From positions 1-37,185 of the forward strand of contig JACPMF010000019.1 in the NCBI GenBank assembly GCA_016186145.1: a stretch of 37,185 nucleotides of DNA, read 5' to 3'. Position 1 is the stretch's first letter, and each line of letters opens with the position of its first letter. The DNA comes from Candidatus Sungiibacteriota bacterium (GTDB lineage Bacteria > Patescibacteriota > Minisyncoccia > Sungbacterales > SURF-37). A program made the position numbers and the translations under genes. This document shows positions 25,731 through 32,818 of this stretch, one piece after another. The notes beneath the pieces were generated by a model. The model ran no database searches, was not told where the DNA came from, and saw only the letters and a program-made list of their open reading frames with translations.

Positions 25731-25894
25731 CCCCGTACCAAATCTTTTGTATACTGGCGTACCCTACTTTCCCAGGAAGCCATGCTTCCAAGTATCATCG
25801 GGCTCAAATGCTTTCACTTCTCTGTTCGGAATGGGAAGAGGTGGGGCACATTTGAGTAAAACACCAGTAAACAGAAAATTTGGTACGGGGCAAG
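25731..25894. mobile_element. Family A element carrying an intact 5S gene
   Basis: CCCCGTACCAAAT...ATTTGGTACGGGGCAAG; removal restores CACTTCTCTGT|TCGGAATG with no target duplication. Confidence 0.7.
25752..25869 (-). rRNA. rrf: Inner intact 5S rRNA gene
   Basis: 118 nt; contains CCCAUUCCGAAC, GAUGAUAC and GGGAAAGUAGG; closing helix UACUGGU/GCCAGUA. Confidence 0.9.
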
Positions 25895-26193
25895 TCGGAA
25901 TGTTCCCGTTTTGTCTGCGAGCCGTAAGCGAACAGTTACAAAACGCGATCCCTTACTCAGCTTGCTGAGTATGGGAGGAAGAGGTGGGGCACCTATGGAT
26001 TAAACACCGGCAAATAAAATTTTTGATGGTTTTACCTAAAACCCATCTTAAAAATGCATTTGGAAAGTGTACTTTGAGCGGGGAGTAAAAATGATCTGTT
26101 AGTACCTCTCGGCTAAAACGCTTGCGCGCCTTACACCTAAGGCCTATCGACGTGATAATCTCTCACGGATCTATGATACCTAATCTTGGGGTG

Positions 26194-26226
<33 letters not shown>

Positions 26227-26368
26227 CTTCCGAACATAGCTACCCAGCGATGCTCCTGGCGGAACAGCTGGTAGACCAGAGGTTCGTTCATCCCGGTCCT
26301 CTCGTACTAAGGACAACTCCCCTCAAGTATCGACGCCTGCAGTAGATAGGAGACCAACCTGTCTCACG

Positions 26369-27083
26369 CTTGTTTGCTTTGCAAACCGCGGAACTACGCT
26401 GACTTCACGCAGACCTACGCAGAAAAATTCCGCGTTTGCCCGCATCCGATCTGCGACCGTCCGCGATGCTTAAGCATATCCTCTGTTACCAGAGGGATTG
26501 GACTATACCACTATCCTAGCCACTAGGGTTTAGCCACTAGCGATTAGGACAACCGACATGTTAGCAATTCATTATATGAATTACTCTGCCGCTTTCACGA
26601 CAAGTCTCTACGGGGTTAGCTTTCCAAAATACTTATTAAGTGCTTTATCATCCTTTTAGCTCTTTCTCGCTCATCTTCAGACAAATTCTTTACCACTCCT
26701 CCGAGTCGGCTTAAGAGATTTGCCACCTCTACAAACTCTTTGGATGCTTCCTTATCTTCTCCAGAGTTAAATGGTTCTTTCTCCATAAAATTATTCCTTA
26801 ATAATTATACCAACTAACTTCCCTCGGTATTATCCTACTAAACCCAGATTGGTTAATCAATTTCCGCGTCAATCCGCGTTGCCATCCGCGTATATCCGCG
26901 TGTTTTGACTTCAGTCAAAACAATAGGACTCCACCGATATGAGTCGGTTTATTCGATCCCGCTTACGCGGGAAAGCCGCCGTGCTTGCCCCGTACCGAGC
27001 TTTACTCTGGTGCGGGGTGTTTAACAAGTTCCTATCTAAAACTTGCTAAAAGATTTCGATGTCAATTTCAGGCTCTTTTTTTG
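26369..27083 (-). ncRNA. Group I intron at L2593
   Basis: Follows exon U and ends in G; core motifs UAUCGGUGGA, AAUACCGAGGGAAG, CCCCGUAGAGACU, GGUAUAGUCC; IGS GCGGCUU and P10 CACG. Confidence 0.9.
26616..26786 (-). CDS. 56-aa intron-encoded hypothetical protein (not a homing endonuclease)
   Basis: MEKEPFNSGEDKEASKEFVEVANLLSRLGGVVKNLSEDERERAKRMIKHLISILES; upstream TATAAT and AAGGA; below the ORF-track cutoff. Confidence 0.6.
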   Translation of the reverse strand: MEKEPFNSGEDKEASKEFVEVANLLSRLGGVVKNLSEDERERAKRMIKHLISILES

Positions 27084-27092
27084 ACGGTTTGA

Positions 27093-27931
27093 CACTTATA
27101 TTACGATTACTCGTAAAGTAGACTATACCTTTATTCAATCTCCGCAGACTGAATACCGACGTCTTATACAACAAGACTTGCTTCTTGTATCTGACCCAAC
27201 ACTGATTGGATCAAGTCGTTACGGGGATTACAAATCTTATGGGTCATTGATGGAATTATAAATGGTTCAATAATATTGTTGAACTTTTGATACTCATGCC
27301 TTCCGATTCTTATCTTGAACCTTGCTCTGTCTTTGATTATCGTTGCGGAAATCTTGAATCTCCGCGCTAGAAATTCAACAATTCGTTCTTGGTCTTGAAG
27401 CAAGAAATTATGAGTACTTATGGTGTACGAAGCTTTCGTATTTGAACCATCGTCCATAAACCATATTGCGATTGCTCTCGGAATCAAATAATCAAACAAA
27501 TCTTGAGGAAATATTTTAACCGCATCCTTATAGAAATAATGATACAGTGCTCCAAGTTCTTTGAGTGTTTTGGTGTGGAAGTACCACGAATAATGATCTT
27601 TGTTTCGCTTGGCATCATGCCAAACTTTGATTCTTCGCGGCTCCTTTAACACCAGATTCTCAAGTTGAGCATATTTCCAGAAGACGTATTCTTTCTGTTT
27701 CTCACTTTGATGAATTCGCAATCGTGCGCTTATGGGATATCGTTTTCCAACTGAACGGCACTCAAGACGAGCATCGCCCAACAATGATCCTATAATCACA
27801 TCAACTTGATGTGACGGAAATAACGATTGTAATCTTCCCACGGTATGGTCCATACAATTTTATTGTATCATAAATTTGCATGGATTCCACCGTTATGAGT
27901 CGGTTTAATCTGGGCTCAGTAGTTTTCACTA
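27093..27931 (-). ncRNA. Group I intron at L2584
   Basis: P1: exon CUGGGU pairs with GCCCAG (U-G at the splice site); terminal G; core CCCCGUAACGACU and GGUAUAGUC. Confidence 0.88.
27164..27853 (-). CDS. LAGLIDADG homing endonuclease (double motif, LAGLIDADG_2-like)
   Basis: IIGSLLGDA and IAIWFMDDGS motifs; inside the L2584 intron. Confidence 0.92.
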   Translation of the reverse strand: MDHTVGRLQSLFPSHQVDVIIGSLLGDARLECRSVGKRYPISARLRIHQSEKQKEYVFWKYAQLENLVLKEPRRIKVWHDAKRNKDHYSWYFHTKTLKELGALYHYFYKDAVKIFPQDLFDYLIPRAIAIWFMDDGSNTKASYTISTHNFLLQDQERIVEFLARRFKISATIIKDRARFKIRIGRHEYQKFNNIIEPFIIPSMTHKICNPRNDLIQSVLGQIQEASLVV

Positions 27932-28015
27932 ACCCAGCTCGCGTATCTTTTTAAATGGCGAACAGCCATACGCTTGGGAGCTTCTTCACCCCCGCGCTAA
28001 GATGAGCCGACATCG

Positions 28016-28845
28016 CTGTCGTTATTTGTCTTCCGTTACCGGAAGGATCGGACTATATCTTCATCCCACCTTTAATGGGAGTTGGCGTTTTAGCTCTCCA
28101 TGTTCTGGAGAACTCCGGTCAACTTCTGACCAAGTCTCTACGGGGTCATAACTCAATTTATACTTCATCGAAGGAATAATATGTTCAGAAATTAATTGAT
28201 TAAATTTCTTAATACTTTCCTTCAAAAATCTTAGTCGATAATAGGATTTATCTTTATTTATGGTCGTTTCCAAACCCAAAACTTTTAACATTCCCATCAA
28301 TTTTTCTTGATCGGAATGGCTGAACTGTTGGGTATTAAGATAAACATCTCTATCGCGGCATCTGCTTCCGTCATCCATAAACCACACAGCAAGTGAAATT
28401 GGACCGAGTTGAATATCTGGTATTCGTTTCTTTCCGCCCTCATAGAATAATTCATGCATTCGCGATAATTCTGGATGCTGCTGTGTATAGAAACGATATG
28501 CTATCCGATGCCCATTTCCATACCGTGATTTTGGAATTCCGCCCGCAATATTTTTGAGTACAGAATATTTCCAATCAACGTACTCTTTTGCTCTTATGGA
28601 ATGGTTTATCTCGAGAAAAGCATCTTTACGCCCTTTTAGTTTGCGCAAATAGCCGTCTCCTAAGAGTGTTCCTATTATCAGAGATTTTTGTAATTGAGTT
28701 AGACTTCCCACGGTATTGTCCATATTAGGTATTTTACCATATGGAGTCCACCGTTATAAGCCAATATTTTATTCGAATTTCCGCTCCTAACGGATTGATT
28801 CGAACGGCTAATGCCGTTGCTGGCATGGCGCCCCGATGTTGTTTG
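28016..28845 (-). ncRNA. Group I intron at L2500
   Basis: Splits GGCACCU|CGAUGUCGG; terminal G; P10 CAUCG; core CCCCGUAGAGACU and AAGAUAUAGUCC. Confidence 0.92.
28061..28723 (-). CDS. LAGLIDADG homing endonuclease (double motif, LAGLIDADG_2-like)
   Basis: IIGTLLGDG and LAVWFMDDGS motifs; inside the L2500 intron. Confidence 0.93.
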   Translation of the reverse strand: MDNTVGSLTQLQKSLIIGTLLGDGYLRKLKGRKDAFLEINHSIRAKEYVDWKYSVLKNIAGGIPKSRYGNGHRIAYRFYTQQHPELSRMHELFYEGGKKRIPDIQLGPISLAVWFMDDGSRCRDRDVYLNTQQFSHSDQEKLMGMLKVLGLETTINKDKSYYRLRFLKESIKKFNQLISEHIIPSMKYKLSYDPVETWSEVDRSSPEHGELKRQLPLKVG

Positions 28846-28885
28846 AGGTGCCGAACTGCGCCGTCGCTGTGGACGCTTGGGCGCA

Positions 28886-28921
<36 letters not shown>

Positions 28922-29136
28922 AATCTTTGGCCTTGTTCTAGCAAGTACCATCGGTTCACTAAGTTCTGCTTTCGCACCTGCTCGGCATGTCCGCCTCGCA
29001 GTCAAGCCGGCTTTTCCCTTTACGGGTCCGACGCGGTTTCCATTCGCGCTAAGCCGACCTTTAAACTCCTCCATTACTCTTTAGGAGGAAAATGCCCCAT
29101 TCAAACTGCCCACCAGACACTGTCTCAGTTGGGTTT

Positions 29137-29228
29137 CACCACGAAGCCCGCAATAATGCAAATCTACGAATGCATCAGAATGCTACGAATAATTTATTCG
29201 CAATTCGCATTTTGTGAACACTGTGGTG
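29137..29228 (-). other. Hairpin insertion in 23S helix 79 region (G-type repeats)
   Basis: CACCAC...GTGGTG stem enclosing TACGAAT/ATTCGCA units. Confidence 0.7.
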
Positions 29229-29506
29229 TTCCCAACTGGTTAGAATACAAGTTTTCACAGAATGGTATTTCACTGACGGCTCCGTCCCATCCGAAAACAG
29301 GACCTCAACGCCTCCCATCTATGCTACGCAGTAAAAACTTATACCCAATATCAAGCTACAGTAAAGCTCCCGGGGTCTTTTCGTCTAACTGCAGGTAACC
29401 TGCATCTTCACAGGTACTGTATTTTCACCGGGCTCCTCCTTGAGACAGTCCCCCGATCGTTACGCCATTCGTGCGCTTCGGAACTTACCCGAAAAGGAAT
29501 TGCGCT

Positions 29507-29830
29507 CAACTTTGTTACAAGAATCTAAAAACTAAAAAGTAGAATCTAGAATCTGGACGAGACATTTCTGCTCGCCTCTGCATATTACTATGCAGTTCGG
29601 ACTATATCTTCCGAGTACACTTAAACTCGGTTCGGCGTGTAGTCTCTACGGGGTCCCTCGATAAACTCGGGACTTCCCTCGGTATTGTCCAAAATCCTGT
29701 CTGAAATTTTGGATGTTCACCGATATAGCTCCGCCGTCGCCTTACGGCTATGGACGGATCCTTGATTTTGTAACTCCTCGATAAACTCGGAGACAAAATC
29801 GGGACAAATTTTACTAAGGCAAATCAATTC
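29507..29830 (-). ncRNA. ORF-less group I intron at L1931
   Basis: Splits CUAAGGU|AGCG; P1 with GCCUUAG; terminal G; core CCCCGUAGAGACU and AAGAUAUAGUCC. Confidence 0.92.
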
Positions 29831-30038
29831 ACCTTAGAACGATTATAGTTATCGCTGACATTGACGAGGGCTTAACATCTCACGCAATAAAAAATTGATG
29901 TAATCTCATTCCCATCACAAAAATGTTTGACCTTCTCGCATCGGTCAGGCGTCACCTCCTATACATCCTCTTACGAGTTAGCAGGAGGCTGTGTTTTTGG
30001 TAAACAGTCGCCAGGGGTTCTTTTGTTGCAGGCGCGCG

Positions 30039-30130
30039 CCCCGCACGCTCATCAGCGAATTACGAATCAGATACGAATATACGAATTCGTAATATTCGCA
30101 AGAGCTTCGCTATTCGTTGATAGCGTGCGA
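30039..30130 (-). other. Hairpin insertion in 23S helix 63 (family G element 30051-30121)
   Basis: CGCACGCT...AGCGTGCG stem with ATCAGCGAATTACGAAT...ATTCGTTGAT. Confidence 0.72.
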
Positions 30131-30676
30131 AGCACGCGTCAAGCCTTATCGCGAACTTACGGCTGCTTTTTTGCCTAGTTCCTTAAGGAGGACTCACCCG
30201 TTCGCCTTGGTGCACTTACACCAACCCACCTGTGTCGGTTTTCGGTACGGTCACCCAGCGGATAATCTTAGAAGCTTTTCTTGGAGGCCTGCTTTACCGA
30301 ATTTCGTCCCGCAAAACGGAACGATTTTCGCTCTGCTTGAGGCCGGGCATAACCCCCGCTGCCGGATTTGCCTGGCAGCGCCCCTTACAGCCCGAACGCA
30401 AATCCAATAATGCGCCCGGCATACTAAACCCCGTCACTCCATCGATCCGCTGGATGGTGCTGGAATATTAACCAGCTGTCCATCGACTTCGGCTTTCGCC
30501 ATTGCCTTAGGCCCGACTAACCCTTGGATGATTGTCATTGCCAAGGAAACCTTGGGTTTACGGCGTGCCGGACTTTCACCGGCATTGTGGTTACTTGTGC
30601 CAACATTCTCTCTTCCCTACGCTCCAATTCCCCTCGCGGGTGAATCTTCACTGCATAGGAAATGCTCTCCTACCGC

Positions 30677-30820
30677 ATCGCTCCTCGCTACTGCTCGGTC
30701 GCTTAATATAATGCGAATCTACGAATATATGCGAATGCTACGAATGTTGTATTCGCGGTATTCGCATACCAATTCGCATTATTCGCATTATGAAAGCTCC
30801 GAACAAAAGTGAGGAGCGAT
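30677..30820 (-). other. IVS-like insertion in 23S helix 45
   Basis: ATCGCTCCTC...GAGGAGCGAT stem with GCGAAT/ATTCGC repeats, at the classic IVS helix. Confidence 0.75.
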
Positions 30821-31458
30821 ACCCGCAACTTCGGTACTTTGCTTAGCCCCGATAAATTTTTAGCGCAGGGACTCTAGACGAGTGAGCTGTTACGCACTCT
30901 TTAAAGGATGGCTGCTTCTAAGCCAACCTCCTCGATGTCTGAGAATCCCCACCACCTTTAACACTGAGCAAAGATTTAGGGACCTTAGTTTGCGATCAAC
31001 GGCTGTTTCCGTTGCGCACGACGGAGCTTAGCCCCCGCCTGCTGACTGCCGGAATAACTCGCTTGCGCATTCGGAGTTTGATTGGTCAAGGCGAGTTTCC
31101 CCGCTCTTGACCATCCAGTAGCTCTACCTCGCAGCGCGCATGATCCGACGCTAGTCCAAAAACTATTTCGGAGAGAACCAGCTATTTCCAGGTTCGATTA
31201 GCTTTTCACTCCTTACCACAGGTCATCCGAAGGCGTTGCACGACCAACCGGTTCGGGCCTCCCCCGCGGTTTTAACCGGGGTTCACCCTGCCCATGGCAA
31301 GCTCACCTGGTTTCGGGTCTTTTGGATTCTACCTAAAGACATTAGACAATAGGTGCTAGATTTTAAAACATAAAATAAGAAGCAAAAAACTTTACAAAAT
31401 CTTTAACTACCTGCAGACTAAACCCAATCTGGTTCTTTTCCCAAACGGAGGAATATAT

Positions 31459-31563
31459 ATGCTAGTTACAATGCTAATCATTATCAGCGGCGTTCTTTTA
31501 GCCTGCATAGTATTTTTATTTCTTATTATCAAAGGTATCGTTGGAATCTTGATTGAACGATAA
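31459..31563 (+). CDS. 34-aa single-TM hydrophobic peptide antisense to the 23S
   Basis: MLVTMLIIISGVLLACIVFLFLIIKGIVGILIER; GGAGG at 31447-31451; TTTACA-17-CAGACT at 31391-31419. Confidence 0.65.
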   Translation: MLVTMLIIISGVLLACIVFLFLIIKGIVGILIER

Positions 31564-31571
31564 CTTTTACC

Positions 31572-31593
31572 AACAGGCCTATGGCCTGTTTTT
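31572..31593 (+). terminator. Intrinsic terminator of the antisense peptide gene
   Basis: AACAGGCC-TAT-GGCCTGTTTTT, 8 nt after the stop. Confidence 0.7.
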
Positions 31594-31802
31594 ATGTTCT
31601 AAAATCTAACACCTAAAATCTAAGGTCTTAAGCGCGCTATTCACACTTGGTTTCCCTTTGCCTCGGTGCCGTAAGCACCTAGACGAGTAGAATTCAAAAA
31701 CTCGTTGGCTCATTCTTCAATAGGCACCTGGTCACCCTTGCGGGCTCCCAGTCCTTGTAAGCGTATGGTTTCAGGTACTATTTCATCGCCCTCATCGGGC
31801 TG

Positions 31803-31841
<39 letters not shown>

Positions 31842-32028
31842 GTTCCGTTAGTATTTAGCCTTAGGAGACTAGTTCTCCCTGCTTCCCGCGCAGTCTCCAT
31901 ACGGCGCGGTACTCAAGAATAATTCAGAGAGCATAAGACCGTTTTCGCGTACAGGACTATTACCTTCTTTGGTGCGCCTTTCCAGGCGTCTTCTGCTAAC
32001 GAAGCCTTAATTTTTATACTCTCCCCGA

Positions 32029-32147
32029 TTGCTCCCTCCTCCGCTCCTCGCTGCGCTCGGAGCTGTGGAGGGCGAGACTCATTGCAAAAGATACTATTGC
32101 AATACTCGCCCTCCGAAGCTCTTGCGAAGCAAAGAGCGAAGGGGGGC
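32029..32147 (-). other. Multi-hairpin insertion in 23S helix 16-18 region
   Basis: GGAGGGCGAG...CTCGCCCTCC stem with GCTC/GAGC side hairpins. Confidence 0.6.
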
Positions 32148-32248
32148 TCGGACGAACTACTCTTACAACTGCAATTTAAATCACTTGATAAATCAAGAAA
32201 TAAAATTGCTCTGGGCTATTCCCTTTTCGCTCGCCGCTACTAAGGGAA

Positions 32249-32363
32249 TGCGCTCCGCACATTCATCAACGAATTACGAATTTTGTACGAATTTACGAAT
32301 AAACAAACTTGTAAATTCGCATATTCGCAGTAGATTCGTTATTCGTTGATAAAAGGCGAAGCC
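32249..32363 (-). other. Insertion near 23S position 220 (family G element 32265-32350)
   Basis: Lies between CTACTAAGGGAAT and TTTCTTTTCCTCC landmarks; near-copy of 6429-6515. Confidence 0.78.
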
Positions 32364-32414
32364 TTTCTTTCTTTTCCTCCGCTTACTGAGATGTTTCACT
32401 TCAGCGGGTATCGC

Positions 32415-32545
32415 GAGCGCTGCTTACGCAGCTAAACTAAAAATGAAAAACTTAAAATTAAAATTTAAGGAATCGTGAAAATTTTTCGCCCACCATTTTT
32501 AATTTTTCATTTTAAACTTTTAACTTAGCTGAGAAAGCAGCGCTC
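32415..32545 (-). other. AT-rich hairpin insertion in 23S helix 9-10 region
   Basis: GAGCGCTGCTT...AAGCAGCGCTC stem with TAAAATT-type 7-mers. Confidence 0.7.
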
Positions 32546-32818
32546 ATCGCTGATTTCTCAGCGATGGGTTTCCCCATTCGGAAATCGCCGGATCAAAGGT
32601 TGCTTGACACCTCCCCGACGCTTATCGCAGTCACGCCACGCCCTTCATCGCCTACGGAACCCTAGGCATCCACCATACGCCCTTATTATTACTCCCCGCC
32701 CAAAACACACTTTGTTTTGAACGGTTTTATTTTTAGGTTACCTGTATTAAATTTTCAAACTGCTTACCTTACCAACCATCGTCTACTCCCAAAAACAGAC
32801 GACGACCGATAAGAATTT

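Follow-up and report, generated by a model that had tools for sequence, protein, structure and literature searches.

The 23S rRNA gene of a Candidatus Sungiibacteriota bacterium (GenBank assembly GCA_016186145.1) carries an insertion whose loop holds a small cassette on the strand opposite to the rRNA, with its own expression signals and an ORF for a short hydrophobic peptide. Comparison of homologous inserts indicates that this ORF is very probably a real, translated gene. The overall explanation that we favor, in which an insert-borne mini-gene is silenced by the rRNA and encodes a peptide similar to type I toxins, is put forward tentatively, with chances that we place somewhat below even. 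Throughout, ‘the window’ refers to the whole stretch of DNA that was analysed (37,185 nt; contig JACPMF010000019.1, positions 1 to 37,185 of the forward strand), and the coordinates of all features within it are collected in Table 1.

A putative excisable helix in an interrupted 23S rRNA gene

The host gene is heavily interrupted, matching the pattern of heavily interrupted 23S genes that the main text of PMC11270868 describes for CPR bacteria. Its genome assembly comprises 980,396 bases on 24 contigs. The organism itself is a tiny groundwater bacterium belonging to the CPR.

The insertion site is expressed here in RF02541 model positions. The local Rfam alignment obtained with cmscan shows 302 nt in place of three model positions, and BLAST of the flanks gives an insert length of 298 nt. 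The insert sits within a hairpin of 5 bp (RF02541 consensus ~681-694) that lies immediately to the 5' side of the conserved GACCCGAAACC. Between them, the two inverted arms (43 nt) reach a complementarity of 84%.

Folding the insert as rRNA-sense RNA yields -107.4 kcal/mol (z = -8.8), compared to a weaker -85.0 kcal/mol (z = -5.6) for the plus strand. Furthermore, the four homologous inserts described below display compensatory changes in 18 of the 47 predicted stem pairs of the rRNA strand, and several invariant G.U pairs of that strand become A.C on the plus strand. Because of these compensatory pairs and of the G.U pairs specific to the rRNA strand, the stem is assigned to the rRNA strand, as a helix of the kind cut by RNase III, by which the insert would be excised from the pre-rRNA. 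RNase III itself is encoded in the genome (PF14622, 134.9 bits, G000:C24:48536-48931).

Inside the insert, the Rfam scan of the window gave no match to an intron covariance model and no endonuclease ORF was found. Identity as a MITE or other repeat was considered and rejected, since the insert is single-copy in the 980-kb genome. Its sequence is invariant across four DNA runs of one study, possibly the source sample, and these runs therefore offer no population variation for testing selection on the window's ORF. Among sequencing runs, none of RNA is listed for positions 31300-31660 of the window.

Table 1. Features of the window that bear on the insertion, its cassette and the host rRNA gene.
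Feature	Position	Strand	Details
IVS-like helix insertion, ~300 nt	31333..31632	minus	tip of domain-II hairpin, RF02541 ~686-690
Stem arm (3' arm in rRNA sense; 5' side on plus strand)	31333..31375		inverted repeat
Partner stem arm	31590..31632		inverted repeat
Promoter-like site TTTACA-17-CAGACT	31391..31419	plus	TTTACA at 31391-31396, CAGACT at 31414-31419, 17-nt spacer; read directly
Shine-Dalgarno GGAGG	31447..31451	plus	7-nt spacer to ATG; read directly
34-aa hydrophobic ORF, antisense to rRNA	31459..31563	plus	MLVTMLIIISGVLLACIVFLFLIIKGIVGILIER
Intrinsic-terminator-like hairpin and T-run	31572..31597	plus	8 pairs, 5 of them G-C; hairpin at 31572-31590, then TTTAT
Body of the 23S rRNA gene that hosts the insert	28741..32695	minus	Rfam RF02541, 1808.8 bits
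Further 3' piece of 23S rRNA	26092-26333		Rfam RF02541, 228.9 bits
5S rRNA	25751-25869		Rfam
Group I intron in the same 23S gene	29578-29840		sole Intron_gpI match of the window
Two LAGLIDADG_2 ORFs in the same 23S gene	27164-28723	rRNA sense	outside the ~300-nt insert

A gene-like cassette on the plus strand of the loop

The original prediction, made from the sequence of the window, had described a 23S rRNA insertion with a long stem and, within its loop, a plus-strand unit composed of a promoter-like site, a Shine-Dalgarno sequence (SD), a short ORF and a terminator. Every one of these elements lies at the place it had given. Its caution that the -10 hexamer is imperfect was equally well placed: CAGACT matches at only three of six positions, for which reason the site fails our sigma-70 rule, and that rule finds no promoter in 31200-31750. 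The encoded peptide has a GRAVY of 2.44 and a maximum of 3.32 over 19 residues, with three charged residues that all fall within its C-terminal third. Two terminator-like sites are found, compared to a mean of 0.6 in shuffled sequences.

One way to account for such a cassette is to suppose that there is no gene: an AT-rich loop with a T-rich plus strand would give rise to hydrophobic frames by chance, and the motifs around them would be look-alikes. To assess chance, the 214-nt loop was shuffled 5000 times with dinucleotide content preserved. In 15.4% of these shuffles, one or other strand contains an ORF of 34 aa or more that begins with ATG; in addition, promoter matches are no more frequent than in shuffled sequences. 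Both results agree with a chance origin. Against it, an ORF of this length preceded by an SD is found in just 1.6% of the shuffles, and the full combination of ORF, SD and a GRAVY of at least 2 in 0/5000. From this last result, the window's cassette has a low likelihood of having arisen by chance.

The predicted mRNA pairs the SD with a stretch of the coding sequence in both the minimum free energy and the centroid structure (z = -1.95). This fold is barely better than that of shuffles and constitutes weak evidence for the explanation favored here.

Long inserts of relatives at the corresponding 23S position

BLAST with the insert DNA matched 0/11 family genomes and, in the order, returned only three short weak matches (E 0.002-0.005). 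Given this near-empty result, the site was instead fetched by its conserved 23S flank. The order set consists of 62 genomes, among them that of the window. The flank is present in 23 of them; both flanks could be placed at 22 loci (19 order relatives), and three loci end at a contig edge. Among the order relatives, the sequence occupying the site measures between 1 and 708 nt. The values for L022 (360 nt) and L023 (242 nt) are overestimated, as a late right-flank match takes in a neighbouring insertion; read by eye, the sites measure about 50 nt and about 117 nt, respectively. Long inserts with clearly homologous stem arms are present at two of the 22 loci, L015 (286 nt) and L021 (271 nt), both from one family (f2) that is different from the window's.

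Metagenomes were scanned with a search anchored on the stem base and the 23S flank, a design that is blind to the content of the loop. Eight contigs were recovered: two are identical to L021, two are identical to L015, one is cut off by the end of its contig, and the remaining three represent a new insert type of 281 nt, hereafter L181. At 18 further loci examined at class level, 1-101 nt occupy the site, about 190 other matching genomes lying outside this survey. The long insert thus seems to be confined to this order and to be patchy inside it.

Other sequences occupy the same position. The closest 23S flank found, L209 (91% identical), carries an unrelated 79-nt hairpin at the site, and the 708-nt insert of L026 includes genes for tRNA-Thr and tRNA-Ile that are oriented in the same sense as the rRNA (ARAGORN, Rfam).

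A search for the stem pattern with three mismatches allowed matched 26 of 401 class genomes. Of the resulting 30 loci, only the window's own and that of G013 have 23S flanks; the others were set aside as heptad-like CTAAAAN repeats located elsewhere and not rRNA inserts. A looser pattern gave at least 119 stretches, nearly all of them unrelated AT-rich DNA, and L092 is the sole flank-bearing stretch among the matches listed, apparently at the same place as G013's.

The cassette recurs in all four long inserts

All four distinct long inserts (the window's, L015, L021 and L181) hold an antisense cassette between their arms. The ORFs start with ATG and have lengths of 34, 40, 41 and 41 aa. Each of the peptides combines one strongly hydrophobic stretch with a polar or charged end; the best 19-residue window reaches 2.06-2.96 in the three homologous cassettes, and charged residues number 3-6 per peptide. 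Conservation of the ORF in homologous inserts had been set beforehand as a test that could refute the original prediction. The prediction withstood it, since a 40-41-aa antisense single-TM ORF with a terminator is present in 3/3 lineages.

The expression signals recur to different degrees. A TTKAC-type -35 box is situated directly inside the stem in 4/4 inserts, and -10-like hexamers (TAATAT, TAAACT, TATAAT and CAGACT) are located 16-18 nt past it; the leaders are 23-33 nt long. By consensus rules, the promoter is the weak point of the cassette. More specifically, one cassette out of four passes the sigma-70 rule (L015, with TTGACT-16-TAATAT and an upstream TG), promoter match counts in the four inserts are not above shuffles, and L021 has two promoter-like sites that are on the rRNA-sense strand instead. 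An SD is found in three cassettes (GGAGG in the window, GGAG in L015, GAGGAG in L181); L021 is without a clear SD and has AAAGAAAAAG only.

A terminator hairpin and T-run are located right after the stop codon in 4/4 inserts compared to shuffle means of 0.1-0.6. On inspection by eye, a T-run is missing from these hairpins when read in rRNA sense, and consequently these terminators should not stop rRNA transcription.

To place the cassettes in context, 45 rRNA loci (129,896 nt) were scanned loosely for small hydrophobic ORFs, resulting in six antisense and six sense ORFs. These equal numbers led us to reject a general excess of antisense ORFs in rRNA genes; four of the six antisense ORFs are the cassette ORFs. 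A strict scan of the rRNA loci recovered the window's ORF alone because its terminator and SD rules are too narrow.

A coding signature in two of the cassettes

The ORFs of L021 and L181 share 57-60% nucleotide identity over 41 codons each with no indel, and 21 of the 41 residues of their peptides are identical (51%). Differences at codon positions 1, 2 and 3 number 14/13/27, an excess at position 3 over positions 1 and 2 that is significant by Fisher's test (p = 0.001). Likewise, pN is 0.34 compared to a pS of 0.74, whereas pN exceeds pS in four of the five control frames. The exceptional control frame is on the opposite strand, where it shares wobble positions, and is not open in L181. The Smith-Waterman score of the two peptides is 87 versus 23.7 +/- 4.5 for shuffles (p < 0.0005). 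Around the ORFs, the arms of the two inserts are 90% identical, the loop 52-60% identical, and the promoter and leader region 52% identical with 10 gap columns. This pattern points to a translated plus-strand gene and not to a structure of the rRNA strand.

L015 can be aligned to the L021/L181 pair without internal gaps, with a similarity that is marginal (p 0.05-0.09). The window's peptide has no detectable homology to the other three (Smith-Waterman p 0.04-0.8), and peptide profile A3 does not match it. Coding selection is accordingly shown for the L021/L181 pair alone, the window's peptide not being detectably related. Either the peptide evolves fast under a constraint on size and hydrophobicity only, or the cargo has been exchanged.

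These comparisons also bear on the supposition that there is no gene. In its favor, no homologue of the window's peptide could be detected, and shadow ORFs of 41-49 aa exist on the opposite strand in three of the four inserts. The shadow ORF is however missing in L181, and a play of chance in AT-rich DNA is at odds with the same-strand cassette in all four long homologous inserts, with the coding signature of L021/L181 and with the position of the terminators. Together with the shuffling result, this makes a loop devoid of any gene improbable.

A related question is whether the functional product could be the RNA. In such a scenario, the antisense RNA would pair with the insert in the pre-rRNA and guide or accelerate its removal by RNase III and its degradation, and the ORF would be secondary or untranslated. 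The positional conservation of the promoter-like and terminator elements and the RNase III gene of this genome are in agreement with it, and a precedent exists in H. pylori, for which PMC6582327 describes an antisense RNA:pre-rRNA duplex cut by RNase III and where a comparable role of the antisense RNA was proposed. A functional RNA leaves unexplained, however, the third-position excess and the indel-free conservation of 41 codons at 57% nucleotide and 51% amino acid identity, as well as the hydrophobic helix in 4/4 ORFs and the SD in 3/4. Moreover, the insert already has a long RNase III-type stem of its own. We give an RNA-only function little chance, and retain the reading of the cassette as a translated gene.

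Relatives of the peptides and the case for a toxin

The peptide had been likened to type I toxins in the original prediction. This likeness stands as far as architecture is concerned, the product being a small hydrophobic peptide with a single TM segment, and does not extend to sequence, where known type I toxin families give no match. Searches of Pfam returned 0 families for all four peptides at E up to 10. NCBIfam gave none for the L015, L021 and L181 peptides and, for the window's peptide, one weak unrelated match to a sortase-dependent surface protein (E 3.4, 8.2 bits versus a cut-off of 47). By Pfam and NCBIfam, the peptides are thus not members of a described toxin family (Hok, Fst, Ldr, TisB, Ibs and others).

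Wider searches gave similar results. The window's peptide obtained 0 matches among 1.84 billion representatives with phmmer and a top score of 0.78, below the useful level, in an Atlas search; the 41-aa peptide of L021 had no candidate in a protein collection of 5.8 billion clusters. That these peptides are missing from protein collections fits with gene callers skipping rRNA genes. At the genome level, the window's peptide matched only itself in 12 family genomes, and profile A3 recovered only its own sources in the 62 order genomes, its weaker matches being located within frames that stay open for 49-937 aa, with a stop interrupting three of these matches. Neither the 12 family genomes nor the 62 order genomes contain a paralogue outside the rRNA gene.

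Hydrophobic mini-proteins are often harmless. The cassette could accordingly be a real gene for a harmless small membrane protein, such as a regulator or an accessory subunit, lodged in an rRNA insert whose loop is dispensable. The loop would then be a safe harbour in a compact genome, and expression may still run inverse to rRNA synthesis. All the evidence from conservation and coding signature applies equally to this possibility, and the peptides match no toxin family. The site tolerates other cargo, as illustrated by the tRNA genes of L026, and fast peptide divergence is typical of orphan small proteins.

Three observations are harder to reconcile with a harmless protein. A gene of ordinary expression would be oddly placed where the cell's strongest transcription unit overlaps it completely, and paralogues outside the rRNA gene are absent from both genome sets. 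In addition, type I toxins are typically recognised by small size, a single TM segment, a polar tail, rapid change of sequence and a partner RNA of full complementarity, and the cassette fits this description in its size, its single TM segment, its polar or charged C-terminus, its combination of fast turnover with constant architecture and its predicted complementary RNA. A harmless product is a serious possibility to which we attach about one chance in three, as we do to a toxin-like effect. The toxin-like reading is the one taken up in the discussion below.

Discussion

We hypothesize that the insert extends the domain-II hairpin in the manner of an intervening sequence, with a ~35-43-bp helix of the kind excised by RNase III. 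Its ~200-nt loop would act as a cargo bay for an independent mini-gene that opposes rRNA transcription, rather than being a feature of the rRNA. This mini-gene would start from a sigma-70-like promoter of low strength and continue with an SD-containing leader of ~30 nt and the coding sequence of a membrane peptide (34-41 aa, single-pass), up to a terminator that works in one direction only; its mRNA would measure ~170 nt. Because this mRNA would lie wholly within the rRNA transcription unit, the pre-23S RNA or the excised insert would constitute its full-length antisense RNA. The original prediction had proposed precisely these molecules as the antitoxin, and the geometry that would make them a perfect antisense partner is real, the unit being located wholly inside the minus-strand 23S gene.

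We infer from this arrangement a chain of events that runs from transcription of the cassette, its silencing by rRNA and excision of the insert to a toxic effect of the peptide. The polymerases that transcribe the rRNA would collide head-on with the mini-gene promoter. At high rates of rRNA synthesis, the peptide would be silenced, both by transcriptional interference and by cutting of the duplex by RNase III. Upon a drop in rRNA transcription, the short-lived insert RNA would be lost and the peptide synthesised, so that peptide synthesis would be inversely coupled to rRNA synthesis. The original prediction had likewise suggested a coupling to rRNA shutdown, or an insert that could be addictive. 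Provided that the gene is real, we regard antisense control of the cassette by the rRNA as reasonably probable.

Once made, the peptide would enter the membrane and act in the manner of type I toxins, leading to growth arrest, to dormancy or to stabilisation of the insert. A toxin-like effect, for which we argue by analogy, has about one chance in three. The most complete version, a type I toxin-antitoxin (TA) module with the rRNA itself as antitoxin and the rate of ribosome synthesis as the signal to live or to arrest, may exist and is on present evidence unlikely.

Ribosomal RNA genes are treated as protein-free territory, and gene callers skip them. A conserved antisense protein gene with its own signals inside a bacterial rRNA would represent a new kind of gene location and would physically link ribosome synthesis to the expression of a membrane-active peptide. 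If true, such a link would equip ultra-small CPR bacteria, whose genomes to our knowledge are without most classical regulators, with an intrinsic means of sensing growth rate or switching to dormancy, and loss of the rRNA insertion would become difficult.

Comparison with known systems

Type I systems with an overlapping cis-antisense RNA include ibs/Sib as well as txpA/RatA and bsrG/SR4, the latter two silenced with the involvement of RNase III. The cassette resembles them in encoding a peptide in the range of ~20-60 aa that combines a single hydrophobic helix with a polar tail, in the predicted existence of a perfectly complementary partner RNA from the opposite strand with RNase III as the expected executor, and in the conservation of architecture alongside poor conservation of sequence. 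It differs in that the partner would be the pre-23S RNA or the excised insert instead of a dedicated sRNA with its own promoter, and in that the cassette peptides match no toxin family model. Our literature searches found no work joining ‘type I toxin-antitoxin’ with ‘Patescibacteria’ and no description of such an antisense peptide gene inside a bacterial 23S rRNA.

The insertion is similar to known intervening sequences (IVS) of 23S rRNA in prolonging the tip of a variable-region hairpin by a long helix, in its patchy distribution and in the presence of an RNase III gene. We take its site not to be among the classic IVS helices. According to the main text of PMC11270868, 23S IVS are excised by RNase III and can carry a sense-strand ORF family, 23S_rRNA_IVP. 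Proteins of that family form a four-helix bundle and are encoded on the sense strand, unlike the cassette peptide: the cassette ORF is antisense, has its own signals and, in the window, encodes a 34-aa membrane peptide with no Pfam match.

The same main text describes CPR rRNA insertions consisting of group I and group II introns accompanied by homing endonucleases of the LAGLIDADG or GIY-YIG type (Tsurumaki et al., 2024, PMC11270868). These are found in the same organism group and in the same heavily interrupted 23S genes, whereas the ~300-nt insert has neither an intron model match nor an endonuclease. ORF annotation as presented there was limited to ORFs with Pfam domains, and the words ‘antisense’, ‘opposite’ and ‘transmembrane’ are absent from the main text, supplements aside. 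The unexplained class of CPR rRNA insertions that this text reports as ORF-less can conceal cargo missed by domain-based annotation.

In H. pylori, Iost et al., 2019 (PMC6582327) describe a cis-antisense RNA to the leader of the 23S-5S precursor; RNase III cleaves the duplex of the two, and degradation of the antisense RNA is rapid. According to the same authors, antisense targeting of a stable RNA had otherwise been reported from a chloroplast only. Both cases involve a bacterial antisense transcript overlapping pre-rRNA, the cassette transcript being a prediction. The RNA of H. pylori is described as non-coding and covers the leader, whereas an SD, an ORF and a terminator are located here within an internal insertion.

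The yeast gene TAR1, as summarized in PMC3026818 and PMC3563013, is a protein gene antisense to the 25S rDNA. It provides a parallel for a protein-coding gene nested in antisense orientation in a large-subunit rRNA gene and normally silenced. TAR1 is however eukaryotic, extends over mature rRNA sequence instead of a removable insert, has a mitochondrial protein as its product and owes its silencing to chromatin. Compared to all of these systems, what is new in the present case is a cis-antisense gene for a small hydrophobic peptide that has ribosomal RNA as its partner.

Additional 23S rRNA gene insertions

The window's 23S rRNA gene, whose body lies on the minus strand, contains a group I intron match and is followed downstream by a separate piece matching the 3' end of the Rfam bacterial large-subunit model (RF02541). 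Two LAGLIDADG_2 homing-endonuclease ORFs sit between the gene body and this piece, within window positions 26333-28741 (see table). The downstream piece is probably the true 3' end of the gene, in which case the insertions near model position 2655 would amount to about 2.4 kb. In a relative (locus L022, G016:C59), a second insertion is located a few tens of nucleotides away from the domain-II hairpin site under study; judged by eye from its sequence, the rRNA-sense ORF in this neighbouring insertion looks like a GIY-YIG-type endonuclease.

Features found in or next to 23S rRNA genes of the window and of relative L026
Feature	Location	Strand or orientation	Detail
Group I intron match	window 29578-29840	minus	inside 23S gene; 52.8 bits
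LAGLIDADG_2 homing-endonuclease ORF	window 28061-28723	minus, rRNA sense	220 aa; E 1.7e-40
LAGLIDADG_2 homing-endonuclease ORF	window 27164-27853	minus, rRNA sense	229 aa; E 4e-37
Separate 23S 3' piece	window 26092-26333	minus	model positions 2655-2912
tRNA-Thr(tgt) and tRNA-Ile(gat)	L026 locus 1009-1083 and 1103-1176	same as rRNA

The E. coli genomes include NZ_AP027616.1 (L229), a 2911-nt circular 'plasmid' whose sole annotation is a 23S rRNA. Because the E. coli 23S motifs searched for in this record are absent, and its sequence looks like rRNA from a different organism, the record may stem from contamination or from an assembly artefact.

Contents and stems of inserts at the hairpin site

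At the hairpin site itself, the insert of relative L026 (G054:C4) is 708 nt long, with a stem of its own flanking it. Besides the two tRNA genes, a third stretch of this insert resembles a tRNA but received no tRNA call. Processing of the embedded tRNAs would free them from the 23S insertion and, in doing so, break up the 23S rRNA.

In the homologous insert of relative L021, the rRNA-sense strand carries two sigma-70-like sites, at 1750-1777 (10/12 matches) and 1864-1891 (9/12). Both are probably chance matches in AT-rich DNA, and they warn against trusting promoter hexamers in these inserts.

The helices inserted at the site are made up of units with a period of about 7 nt, such as CTAAAAN or TAGnnnn repeats; this periodicity was seen in the stems of loci L009, L012, L018 and L209 and of the window (arms 31333-31375 and 31590-31632). 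Comparable heptad-like runs occur away from this rRNA site in 26 of the 401 class genomes (stem-pattern matches L031-L060). One idea is that the heptad-like units reflect rRNA hairpins grown by slippage.
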